Origin: Escherichia coli
GTDB lineage: Bacteria > Pseudomonadota > Gammaproteobacteria > Enterobacterales > Enterobacteriaceae
DNA: 64,000 nt
NCBI RefSeq assembly: GCF_016903815.1
Contig: NZ_CP069974.1
Reading direction: 5' to 3' (one strand)
In this document: piece after piece, positions 60,001 to 63,000 of the stretch
Numbering within the stretch: position 1 is the first letter of the stretch
How the letters are laid out: each line of letters opens with the position of its first letter
Made by a program: the position numbers

Positions 60001-63000
60001 TGACCAATCTCGAGTTGTTACATCCGAACTGCCACCGACAGTTACACAGCAGGGAAGCCGGTGCTCACCGAAAGCACTTATAAAGGCTTGAGCGGAGTGC
60101 GGGGAAACTCGCACGCTCCGTTCTTAGGGGGCGGCGGCGCAGCAATGTGCCGCTGCTACCCGACCCGGCAGACAGGACAACACTGCAGTAGTCAGAATCA
60201 GAGCAGGAAGAAAAAGAGAATAATCACAGGGAAGGTGATGTGATTTCTGACAGGCCATAACCAGAGAAGGCGGGGGAAAAGAACGGGCGCCGCAGGCGCG
60301 CGTTCATCCCCGTTCCTGAAGGGAAACGACCTTCCTGAAGTCAGGTTGTTCATGCCCGTACAACATCAGCAAGGAGAAAGGGGCTACCGGCGAACCAGCA
60401 GCCCCTTTATAAAGGCGCTTCAGTAGTCAGACCAGCATCAGTCCTGAAAAGGCGGGCCTGCGCCCGCCTCCAGGTTGCTACTTACCGGATTCGTAAGCCA
60501 TGAAAGCCGCCACCTCTCTGTGTCCGTCTCTGTAACGAATCTCGCACAGCGATTTTCGTGTCAGATAAGTGAATATCAACAGTGTGAGACACACGATCAA
60601 CACACACCAGACAAGGGAACTTCGTGGTAGTTTCATGGCCTTCTTCTCCTTGCGCAAAGCGCGGTAAGAGGCTATCCTGATGTGGACTAGACATAGGGAT
60701 GCCTCGTGGTGGTTAATGTACTGACCCCAAAAAGTTGGACAGTTAAACACGAGGCATATAGGTCTGATTCCGATATTCAATTGGAGTCAGACCTTTTAAT
60801 TTCAGGCTAATTCTTCTGCTGTTGTAGTATTCAATATATTCCGTAACAGCATCCTTCAGTTCGCTTATATTACTGAACTCATCAAGATAAAAACACTCCG
60901 ACTTTAAGGTTCCAAAGAAACACTCCACCACAGCATTATCCAGACAATTGCCTTTTCTGGACATGCTTTGTTTAATACCATGTTCTTTAAGGATATTTTG
61001 ATATCTTCTCATACGATACTGCCATCCCTGGTCAGAGTGCAGAACAGGATGCTCGTGAGGATTAAGCTTTTTGAATGCCTGATCGAGCATATTCTCAACC
61101 ATGTTCATCACTGGTCTTTCCGAAAGGCTGTAAGAAATAACTTCGTTGTTGAAGAGATCTATTACTGGAGACAAATACAGCTTGCGCCCATTGACTGCAA
61201 ATTCAGTAACATCGGTAACCCACTTCTCGTTTGGCCGCGTAGCCTTGAAATCTCTTTGGAGAACATTAGGGGCGGTTTGCCCTACCTCTCCTCTGTAAGA
61301 GCGGTATCGCTTGACCTTAATCGCTGCTTTAAGTGAGAGGGTTCCCATCAGGCGCTGAACAGCTTTATGGTTAATCTGTTTCCCTTCTCGATGAAGAGAC
61401 AGCGTTACCCTACGGTATCCGTATCGGCCTCTATTCTCGTGATAAATCTCACTAATACGCTTTTTAACGTCCGCATACTTGTCAGGCTTGCTGAGAGCCT
61501 TTAGATGATAATAAAACGTACTGCGCGGTATCTCCGCAGCCCTGAGAAGCTCATCAAGAGGATAAAACTGCCTTAGCTCGTTGAGTACTTTCACTTTTTC
61601 GTGGGATGAGCTAAGGCTTTCAGCTTTTTTAGATACATAAGCCGCGTTTCAAGAAATCGAACTTGCCTTTCAAGATCCTCAATGCGTCGGTCTTTTGACA
61701 GCTCCAATGCTGATGCCGCTTTTTCTGGATCAACTGATATTGCAATGTTTCTTTTGGTGCCAATCTTGAGCGCGCGTAAACCAGCTTCTCCGCGCTCTTC
61801 ATAGACCTTCAGCCACCTGGCTACAGAACCACTACCAGCAAGCATAAAGTGAGCAGCAGCCTGATTAAGGGACATGTGCTGCTCGATCACAGCTTTCACG
61901 ACCTTAATACGCAACTCTGGATCAGCACTAACGCCTTTAGGTTTGGGAATTAAACCTTTTTCTCCATGTTTTTCATAGAGGGCAACCCATGTCCTGACCT
62001 GGGTTCGGGGGACACCAAAACGTGCCGAGATGATCCTGTAACCATCATCAGTTGTGAAGTAGTGATTCACGACTTCAAGGCGCTTTTCAAAAGGGTATTT
62101 TGGCTTTGACATATTAGGGGCTATTCCATTTCATCGTCCAACAAAATGGGTGCAGTACAAGCGCCGGGCACATCATAGCCCATATACCTGCACGCTGACC
62201 ACACTCACTTTCCCTGAAAATAATCCGCTCATTCAGACCGTTCACGGGAAATCCGTGTGATTGTTGCCGCATCACGCTGCCTCCCGGAGTTTGTTCGGCA
62301 CCATCCACCGCTCCATCTCACGAACAGCATGACCGACCACCCTTGCCGCCATACCAGCCTCTGCGATGACCTGCCAGAATGGCATATCCTGCCACTGCCA
62401 GCGTTCCATTCCGGCCAGTGACGGAAAACGCTCGCCCCACTGCCAGAACAGGGTTTCCAGGTCATGCTCTGCCACCCGGTCACTCCAGCGTGCATGCCAG
62501 CTTCCGACTGTTTCCGGCGAATGGAATGCCAGTTCGATTTCAGCCTGAGCGACCAGCGCCTGGTACGCACGGGCTTTCTGCTCTGCCTCCCTCGCCTGCT
62601 GGCGGCTGTACTTCTGCATGACCAGCGCGGATTTATGGCGACTGCGTTCCCTGACACGAAACCGCACCGACGGGAACAAGCGCTCTGCTGCATCACCGGG
62701 AAGGGGAAGGAGGCAGACCTCGCCCTGTGTTTCAATCAGCACATCGATGGCATACAGCCACTGAAGACGGTTGCCGTGCAGTTCTTCTGCGGTCAGGGAC
62801 GGCATGAAAAATCGCAGGTCAGACAGCGATATCCTGCGGCTTCCGTTCAGACAGCGGAAAAACGCCCCCGCATACGGATATTCAGCCAGCGTGTTACCCT
62901 GATGGCGGCGTTTTTCGGTCTCCGCCACCGCCCGCCATGCGGCCTGTTGCTCTGTGCTGAGAGGAACCAGTGCCTGTGAACGTGCGCTCATGCCTGACCT

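Follow-up and report, generated by a model that had tools for sequence, protein, structure and literature searches.

An R1/R100-type hok/sok locus of an IncF plasmid leading region, probably inactivated by IS150 insertion and an adjacent deletion

A complete copy of the insertion sequence IS150 lies upstream of an intact hok toxin gene in the window, by which we mean the whole stretch of 64,000 nucleotides of Escherichia coli contig NZ_CP069974.1 that was analyzed here. This arrangement raises the question of whether the hok/sok system was merely split by the element or has lost parts of its leader, and whether post-segregational killing could still operate. According to our analysis this is probably a type I locus of the R1/R100 hok/sok (parB) kind, situated in the IncF leading region, that was wrecked in two steps, (i) insertion of IS150 and (ii) a deletion extending from one end of the element, and that has thereby lost its killing function.

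Elements kept and lost at the hok/sok locus

The following features were identified by alignment to R100, protein family models and sequence scans (window positions, strand, description):

60412..60473, minus strand: kept 3' region of the hok mRNA (R100 alignment), its elements placed by complementarity to the 5' end and by PMC9841398
about hok +337..+361, minus strand: terminal stem of the processed hok mRNA (3' processing stem), putative position
60414-60423 (hok +387..+396), minus strand: fbi box CTGAAGCGCC, putative position
60478..60636, minus strand: hok toxin gene, intact ORF of 52 aa
60482..60694, minus strand: mok leader ORF, intact, 70 aa, with its ATG at 60694 (hok +116)
60650..60678, plus strand: putative sok promoter, TTGCGC / 17-nt spacer / TATCCT (boxes 60650-60655 and 60673-60678), assigned from where it lies with respect to the Sok 5' end
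60686..60716, plus strand: what is left of the gene for the Sok antisense RNA, roughly nt 1-31 of 64 (exact +1 putative)
60702..60705 (hok +105..+108), minus strand: mok Shine-Dalgarno (SD) GAGG, 11 nt from the IS150 end
60717..62159, minus strand: complete IS150, IS3 family, 1443 bp, IRR at 60717 and IRL at 62159
60743-61594, minus strand: IS150 orfB (Pfam rve, 101.7 bits)
61591-62112, minus strand: IS150 orfA (Pfam HTH_28, 81.5 bits)
61624-61630: slip site A AAA AAG (AAAAAAG) for -1 frameshifting, IS position 530
62160..62165, minus strand: hok mRNA +1..+6, GGCGCT, first nucleotides of tac, joined directly to the left end of IS150
62172..62201, minus strand: hok promoter, TGGTCA / 18-nt spacer / TATGAT, intact, directed into the left end of IS150
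62272..62991, minus strand: psiA, the upstream neighbor (Pfam PsiA, 129.7 bits; annotations of related plasmids)

The presence of psiA beside the locus places it in the plasmid leading region. The original prediction of an intact hok gene of 52 aa was borne out by the ORF itself, by its match to Pfam HOK_GEF (76.5 bits, cut-off 22) and by its identity to Hok of R100 (52/52 residues). It had further been claimed that the mok-like frame runs into IS150 at 60717, which proved incorrect: the canonical 70-aa mok, which overlaps hok and is translationally coupled to it, is complete, with Pfam DUF5431 covering residues 1-70 of 70 (134.8 bits), and the frame that remains open into the element continues the hok frame upstream. 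Mok differs from R100 Mok by one amino acid, caused by a SNP at 60517, and neither hok nor mok was found to carry inactivating mutations in the R100 alignment and the Pfam searches. The mok SD and ATG are likewise both intact at about 11-22 bp from the element. The hok numbering used for the SD fits G105/A106 of PMC9841398, from which the roles assigned here to tac, ucb/anti-SD, fbi, the mok SD and the 3' stem were taken. At the 3' end of the mRNA hok +337..+398 is kept; its one departure from R100 is an A in place of G at +368, past the processing stem.

The IS150 copy is identical to that of K-12 at all positions (1443/1443 nt, 0 mismatches). Its terminal inverted repeats are imperfect and start with TGTACTG, and its transposase genes read in the same direction as hok. 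From the hok ATG to the end of the complete element there are exactly 80 nt (60637-60716), in agreement with the predicted distance of about 80 bp.

When both flanks of IS150 were aligned to the intact locus, as had been proposed, the hok side corresponded to hok +94..+468 of R100 (367/373 identity, 98%), and the promoter side, which is 100% identical to the same side of intact loci, ended at +6. The intervening hok +7..+93 (87 nt) was missing from both sides of the element and from the whole window in the R100 alignment. Within this stretch lie the remainder of tac, the early metastable hairpin and the ucb/anti-SD box, and also the loop, the 3' stem half and the U tail of Sok. The earlier view that neither the hok promoter nor sok is contiguous with hok was therefore right for the promoter, which lies on the far side of IS150 with 1443 bp between, but not for sok as a whole, whose promoter and nt 1-31 (the unpaired 5' tail plus the 5' arm of the stem) still adjoin hok. 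The start of tac is now 1.44 kb away from its partner fbi. With 8/12 consensus positions the sok promoter falls under the scanner threshold.

No complete hok/sok locus was found within 60478-60716, as the original prediction had implied: the Rfam sok model (RF01794) scored 35.5 bits in the window, below its gathering score of 59, and an intact-leader control reached 73.1 bits. The locus thus holds no complete Sok gene (promoter, 5' tail, stem-loop and terminator). Its hok promoter is not contiguous with a mok-hok mRNA and the tac/ucb leader.

Origin of the allele

A target-site duplication, expected to be 3-4 bp long, was not found at the window IS150, the flanks of which read ..GGTTAA| and |AGCGCC.. 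in the order of the window positions. Its absence implies that this copy was rearranged after insertion. In plasmid NZ_CP015086 this IS150 has an identical right junction, but the element is bordered there by an AGCG duplication and by 91 extra bp on the hok side. We refer to this ancestral arrangement, with IS150 at hok +3..+6, as form A.

To count alleles, PLSDB and RefSeq were searched using 60-bp junction queries (E <= 1e-12); queries of 100 bp failed to resolve the alleles, nearby pieces being merged into one place. The right junction of the window was present in 107 PLSDB records. The left junction of form A was found in 69 PLSDB records, that of the window in 30 at >=99% identity plus 4 at 95-99% (about 34) as well as in 33 RefSeq records, and a variant with a 35-bp deletion in 1 PLSDB plasmid. 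These three forms accounted for 104 of the 107 right-junction records, and practically every left junction of the window type occurred together with the ancestral right junction. No sequence difference separates the IS150 copies of form A, the 35-bp-deletion variant and the window type. Flanking SNPs were compared by anchored alignment, the left flank of the multiple alignment being disturbed by a group II intron. The SNP at 60517 was shared with plasmid L003, the only other window-type copy compared, and was absent from the ancestral, 35-bp-deletion, site D and site E plasmids compared.

Sites D and E are independent IS150 insertions located 4-7 bp from the window junction. At site D, the commonest allele (about 183 PLSDB records), the element sits at hok +90..+92 with a 3-bp duplication GAA, and at site E (about 140 PLSDB records) at hok +101..+103 with a 3-bp duplication TGG. 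Forms A, D and E resemble the window in the element, its orientation and the hok/sok allele, and the right junction of form A is exactly equal to that of the window. They differ in being simple insertions that keep the whole locus in split form, whereas in the window 87 nt and the duplication are gone. Altogether, IS150 was present in this hok leader in about 430 PLSDB plasmids, ~15% of those with this hok/sok allele. The carriers are mostly conjugative E. coli plasmids, and those examined are IncF multireplicon plasmids.

These alleles suggest that IS150 would have inserted into hok mRNA +3..+6, just past the hok promoter, generating the 4-bp duplication AGCG, and that a 91-bp deletion from the IS150 right end would then have removed one copy of the duplication together with hok +7..+93. 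The deletion may have arisen by intramolecular transposition, or by a second nearby IS150 insertion followed by IS-IS recombination, both routes leading to the same product. Since insertion was followed by an IS-adjacent deletion, the missing elements would be lost and not displaced. The direction from the ancestral to the window form is one that we infer by parsimony, without a dated phylogeny.

Three other accounts of the junction were weighed. The original prediction was a single, plain insertion of IS150 80 bp upstream of hok, which would leave every part of hok/sok present and split by the element. Although the IS is complete and exactly where such an insertion would put it, and other plasmids do carry plain IS150 insertions with 3-bp duplications at points 4 and 7 bp from this one, the lack of a duplication at the window junctions, the right junction equal to that of the +3..+6 insertion and the alignment, which revealed 87 nt missing on both sides, refute a plain insertion and leave this account highly improbable. 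Descent from site D instead of the +3..+6 insertion is very unlikely; it could appeal to the frequency of that allele (about 183 PLSDB records), to its left junction just 4 bp from that of the window and to the psiA-side flanks of the sampled site D plasmid, which equal the window over the variable sites, but it needs two deletions, one of 4 bp on the hok side and one of 86 bp on the promoter side, the latter having to recreate the exact +3..+6 right junction. Furthermore, the site D element differs from the window copy at 1 base, and that of the +3..+6 insertion is identical. IS elements are classic sites of misassembly, so that an assembly artefact such as collapse at a repeated IS was considered as well. 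It is vanishingly improbable, given that the same 60-bp junction is present in 30 PLSDB and 33 RefSeq complete-genome records from unrelated studies and that at least 19 plasmids match the entire 2.1-kb segment at 100% identity.

Functional state and a predicted chimeric Sok RNA

Under the preferred two-step origin hok would be without its own promoter, and the only transcription reaching it would be read-through that starts at the hok promoter or the IS promoter and crosses the 1.44 kb of the element. As judged from the sequence, hok is probably silent or nearly so. Such read-through RNA would be unable to fold into the full-length structure, closed, stable and slow to be activated, in which the killing potential is stored, and for this reason post-segregational killing is most likely abolished. 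Promoter activity of IS150 ends is reported as not detectable (PMC12095673); our scans detected no promoter directed outward from the IS150 right end and no terminator-like site on the minus strand between orfB and mok.

Several observations stand as counterpoints. Read-through from the hok or IS150 promoter may reach mok/hok, and loss of the anti-SD box alone would ease, not hinder, the translation of such a transcript. In addition, hok and mok are uncorrupted in about 34 PLSDB plasmids with the allele, which could mean that some function is kept. A transposon screen of pEC958, in which hok/sok was dispensable, was considered as functional evidence and dropped; it neither supports nor opposes loss of function, because the pEC958 leader is uninterrupted and the region examined contains no IS150.

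Plasmid maintenance would then rest on other modules. The window contains pemK (23235-23564), and a second Hok-family (SrnB-like) gene, which the original prediction had missed, is located at 29808-29999.

The sok promoter probably still fires, and two further features concern the transcript that it would produce:

60760..60804, plus strand: terminator-like 15-bp hairpin followed by TTTTAATTT, in the IS150 right end (consensus scan), facing transcripts from the sok promoter
60697-60706 and 60748-60757, unstranded: 10-nt perfect inverted repeat, ATGCCTCGTG and CACGAGGCAT (sequence read)

From these we predict a chimeric Sok-IS150 RNA of ~120 nt, with the native Sok 5' tail and a 3' end at the IS150 hairpin (predicted fold in the window: z = -6.2). 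Of the two repeat arms, ATGCCTCGTG lies in the Sok remnant opposite the mok SD and CACGAGGCAT is formed by the last codons of IS150 orfB. A complement of >=10 nt occurred in 3/5000 shuffles and in 1/1063 natural windows, and is thus rarer than expected by chance.

The locus could accordingly be imagined as rewired and not dead, with the chimeric Sok, aided by a 10-nt anti-SD that IS150 supplies, repressing mok-hok transcripts read through from the hok promoter and IS150. It would then be a residual toxin-antitoxin (TA) system, or an antitoxin-only element neutralizing the hok mRNA of related plasmids. Consistent with this are the intact sok promoter and Sok 5' tail, the rarity of the 10-nt complement, the pairing of the mok SD with the IS150 segment in 4/6 folding contexts, and the free 5' tail, 10-bp helix and terminator-like hairpin predicted in the window and in both sok-internal insertion forms (z -5.6 to -7.5). 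The evidence is, however, of a thermodynamic and consensus-scan kind only, the SD pairing shifts in longer folding contexts, the tac/ucb/fbi logic of delayed activation is gone and the IS150 ends have no detectable promoter activity (PMC12095673). The lack of inactivating mutations in hok and mok also speaks for retained function, but intact ORFs are to be expected anyway if the event is recent, and the flanks are nearly identical among the compared forms. On balance we consider a rewired locus unlikely. A broader version, in which the hok leader upstream of the mok SD is a sequence-directed IS150 hotspot and the IS right end replaces the destroyed parts (Sok 3' domain and terminator, and a surrogate mok anti-SD) to give a viable rewired antisense module, is distinctly unlikely. 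If it were true, the module would provide residual hok control or serve as an antitoxin-only element against related hok/sok plasmids, which it would disarm.

Relation to known systems and IS150 insertions

Returning to the two-step decay of the locus, surveys and annotation pipelines score it as a hok (and mok) addiction system that is present, so that in the several hundred plasmids with IS150 in this leader the working maintenance systems are probably overcounted by one. The allele series offers a clean natural case of IS-anchored nested deletion. The locus itself is an ordinary case of decay of a known system, with the chimeric Sok RNA as the only unusual lead, and a new biological question would arise only if that RNA proves real.

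With the hok/sok (parB) post-segregational killing system of R1/R100 the window shares Hok, the promoter region through +6 and the place beside psiA/psiB. It differs in that the promoter is 1443 bp from the genes, +7..+93 is deleted and the Rfam sok match is below threshold.

A full-text literature search found no paper describing IS150 in hok/sok of IncF plasmids. Comparable insertions exist at chromosomal loci. In hokA/mokA/sokA of K-12 MG1655 the same element (100% identity) has entered the mok/sok leader, upstream of a hok-family ORF that is itself intact, and RefSeq lists mokA and sokA as pseudogenes, one on each side of IS150. The alternative that the K-12 IS elements lie downstream of hok genes was rejected, since RefSeq puts IS150 upstream of hokA, where it splits mokA/sokA; with this placement the K-12 analogy drawn in the original prediction holds for hokA, though the orientation of IS150 is opposite to that in the window. 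At hokA the element is 32 bp from the ATG and inside mokA, so that mok is truncated there and whole in the window, and the 87-bp deletion belongs to the window and not to K-12 hokA.

IS150 insertion was also reported at hokC, as well as at hokE and mokB, in the evolved E. coli B strain REL4536 derived from REL606 (PMC5419217). Of the published positions only hokC could be mapped, as no hok locus was found in REL606 (NC_012967) at the hokE and mokB coordinates. The hokC coordinates, 16,972 and 16,989 on REL606, flank the equivalent of the Sok hairpin just before the mok SD, which is the same stretch that was hit in the window and at plasmid sites D and E. The REL4536 events took place in the laboratory at chromosomal loci, in contrast to the plasmid locus of the window.

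Two further ideas were not retained. An orientation bias was rejected since the three independent plasmid insertions agree but are too few for significance, and K-12 hokA is opposite. Likeness of the target to the IS150 inverted repeats was rejected as well, the shared 10-mer lying outside the inverted-repeat consensus and no similar motif being present at the K-12 hokA flank. Insertion hotspots of mobile elements near hok/sok genes have been described (bioRxiv 10.1101/527788), and because K-12 hokA and hokC of the evolved strain were hit in the same stretch, this part of the leader is a known IS hotspot. That IS150 tends to insert into hok leaders was already known, and the plasmid alleles described here are additional cases.

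Structure of the IS150 junctions

In the window, a hok/sok locus of the R1/R100 type has been disrupted by IS150 and has lost part of its sequence; it represents one allele of a recurrent series.

Features of the locus (window coordinates)
60478-60636, minus strand: hok, 52 aa, with a Pfam HOK_GEF match and identical to R100 Hok
60482-60694, minus strand: mok, overlapping hok, a complete 70-aa ORF matched end to end by Pfam DUF5431
60650-60655 (TTGCGC) and 60673-60678 (TATCCT): sok promoter, contiguous with hok
60686-60716: Sok 5' remnant, approximately the first 31 nt, contiguous with hok; start inferred from promoter spacing and the 64-nt fold
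60717-62159: complete IS150 of 1443 bp, genes co-oriented with hok, 0 mismatches to IS150 as annotated in E. coli K-12 MG1655
60760-60804, plus strand: 15-bp hairpin followed by TTTTAATTT, in the IS150 right end
62201-62172, minus strand: hok promoter-like site TGGTCA-18-TATGAT from the promoter scan, beyond the IS
62272-62991: psiA, beyond the IS on the hok-promoter side

Since the promoter-like site and psiA lie upstream of the IS, the locus occupies its position in the IncF plasmid leading region. The IS150 carries orfA (HTH), orfB (rve) and the slip site A AAA AAG, and its right end lies exactly 80 nt from the hok ATG, in agreement with the original prediction of an insertion about 80 bp upstream of an intact 52-aa hok. 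The mok frame had been described as running into the IS; instead, the mok Shine-Dalgarno sequence (SD, 60702-60705) and ATG (60694) are found 12 and 22 nt inside the IS flank, and it is the hok frame that, when extended, continues without a stop into IS150. In the alignment Mok differs from R100 Mok at one residue. A G-to-A substitution at 60517 (hok +293) leaves the Hok protein unaltered and replaces one Gly of Mok with Arg; it is shared with L003, the one other window-type plasmid compared, and is absent in the compared plasmids of the other four forms.

For the comparison with an intact locus the uninterrupted version was rebuilt from a related plasmid and numbered from the hok mRNA start GGCGCTTGAGG, a numbering that recovers the published G4/C5/T6 (tac), A70-C74 (ucb, or anti-SD, box) and G105/A106 (mok SD) (PMC9841398). 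Window position 60716 corresponds to hok +94 and 62165-62160 to +1..+6; in the R100 alignment the hok side spans +94..+468, with 367/373 positions identical, and the promoter side stops at +6. Because no copy of +7..+93 was found in a search of the whole window, and because the flanks (..GGTTAA, IS150, AGCGCC..) have no direct repeat in common, the junction is not a simple insertion and 87 nt of the leader have been lost. On the hok strand these comprised most of tac, the early hairpin and the anti-SD box, and on the opposite strand the Sok loop, 3' half-stem and U tail.

The hok promoter and sok had both been expected to be separated from hok. This holds for the hok promoter, the only promoter displaced to the far side of the IS, but not for the sok promoter and the remaining Sok segment, for which the Rfam sok model scored 35.5 bits (gathering score 59), compared with 73.1 bits on an intact-leader plasmid used as a control. 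The original observation is real and mostly accurate, and its interpretation right in part.

Allele series and history

A 2.1-kb segment was 100% identical across many IncF plasmids, and five IS150 forms of this hok leader were seen, with the same IS orientation in every form among the copies examined.

IS150 alleles of the hok leader (form; plasmid; position; target duplication; PLSDB records)
A, ancestral; NZ_CP015086; +3..+6; AGCG; 69
B; NZ_CP109875; right junction of A, 35-bp deletion, hok side from +38; none; about 1
C; window and L003; right junction of A, hok side from +94; none; 30 at ≥99% identity and 4 at 95-99%
D; NZ_CP035478; +90..+92, in the Sok hairpin loop; GAA; about 183
E; NZ_CP123591; +101..+103; TGG; about 136-150

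Form A has the same IS150 and right junction as the window and 91 bp more on the hok side. The shared right junction occurred in 107 PLSDB records, close to 69 + 34 + 1, and window-type left junctions are therefore essentially always paired with it. The IS copies of A, B and C are identical, and the sampled D copy differs by one base. The most economical history, judged from these sequences, would have two steps, IS150 insertion at +3..+6 and then a deletion extending from its right end, through either intramolecular transposition or a further insertion with subsequent IS-IS recombination; form B shows a shorter such deletion. Forms D and E each go back to a separate simple insertion and keep the whole locus on either side of the IS. 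Since the uninterrupted sok segment was present in about 2,490 records, including R100, the IS150-interrupted alleles make up roughly 15% of this hok/sok type. Complete E. coli genomes in RefSeq gave 33 records with the window-type junction and 143 with that of the D type.

In L005 (CP088841, 2244-3035), a plasmid with the site-D allele, the hok side is broken by an IS26 near hok +118 and hok lies inverted beyond IS26, a further decay of a locus already split by IS150. A group II intron (57822-60163, plus strand; Rfam D1-D4 57866-58015, D5/D6 60088-60164; reverse transcriptase/maturase ORF 58416-60083) is found within a small hypothetical ORF, about 250 bp past the 3' end of hok mRNA. It is absent from the otherwise identical L003, and its 3' junction occurs in 872 PLSDB records.

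Expected function and plasmid maintenance

In the full-length hok mRNA, tac pairs with fbi and the ucb box covers the mok SD, which keeps the message inert and stable. As the 3' end is slowly trimmed, tac can pair with ucb, and the SD becomes available for translation, or for binding by Sok with cleavage by RNase III (PMC9841398). Promoter activity was not detectable at the IS150 ends (PMC12095673). In the window hok would lack its own promoter, and mok-hok RNA would arise solely by read-through across 1.44 kb. Such RNA would be without ucb and almost all of tac, so that no stable latent pool would form for killing after plasmid loss. With hok cut off from its promoter and no such pool to draw on, post-segregational killing has likely been lost. 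Plausible side effects are transcription from the hok promoter into the left end of IS150, in the direction of orfA, and from the strong sok promoter into the right end.

A locus rewired by IS150 and still repressing would draw on the latter transcript. The segment CACGAGGCAT (60748-60757, 10 nt, last codons of orfB) is a perfect complement of 60697-60706 in the mok-SD/Sok remnant region, and the sok-promoter transcript is predicted to have a free Sok 5' tail, a 10-bp helix and an end at the IS hairpin. Folding predicted the same architecture at sites D and E (z from -5.6 to -7.5), and in 4 of the 6 contexts folded for the hok-sense strand the IS segment could base-pair with the mok SD. The complement is rarer than chance (3/5000 shuffles, 1/1063 natural windows); target preference, the survival of tolerable insertions or coincidence could account for it. 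Continued repression appears improbable to us, and loss of killing is the reading we retain. The relevance of the locus is to the annotation and counting of plasmid maintenance systems; the biological interest is modest.

Other elements in the window
23235-23564, minus strand: pemK
26451-26541, plus strand: IncFII CopA RNA
29808-29999, minus strand: second Hok/Gef-family gene, SrnB-like, 63 aa (Pfam HOK_GEF, 35 bits)

The pem system proposed as a backup does exist, and its PemK matches at 100% what we take to be the R100 PemK sequence. No CcdA or CcdB match was obtained within the window. IS10 RNA-OUT was matched at 36651-36720 and 37723-37792 (both plus strand, equal scores), 1,072 bp apart; since this spacing is less than one IS10 length, it suggests that the IS10/Tn10 region is rearranged or truncated.

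Comparison with known loci

Plasmid papers simply count hok/mok or hok/sok among addiction systems, and a full-text literature search returned no description of IS150 disruption of the hok leader in IncF plasmids. The pEC958 transposon screen, in which hok/sok was dispensable, does not bear on the window allele because the pEC958 locus is uninterrupted. In PLSDB/PGAP annotation the Hok CDS is 126 bp (41 aa) in six of the related plasmid segments (L001-L004, L006, L008; e.g., L003 3179-3304), compared with the canonical 52 aa. mok is missing from the PLSDB plasmid gene tables, and RefSeq E. coli records contain a 'plasmid maintenance protein Mok' abutting the IS.

Recurrent IS150 disruption of hok leaders is already established by chromosomal cases. 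In K-12 hokA, IS150 lies 32 bp upstream, in the orientation opposite to that in the window, with the RefSeq mokA and sokA pseudogenes on its two sides. IS150 insertions beside hokC, hokE and mokB were reported from an evolution experiment with the REL606-derived REL4536 (PMC5419217), and a survey of mobile-element insertions lists hok/sok genes near hotspots (bioRxiv 10.1101/527788). Placed on the REL606 reference, the two hokC insertion coordinates (PMC5419217) flank the equivalent of the Sok hairpin, directly before the mok SD, and the hokC and plasmid insertions thus fall in the same stretch of ~30 bp.
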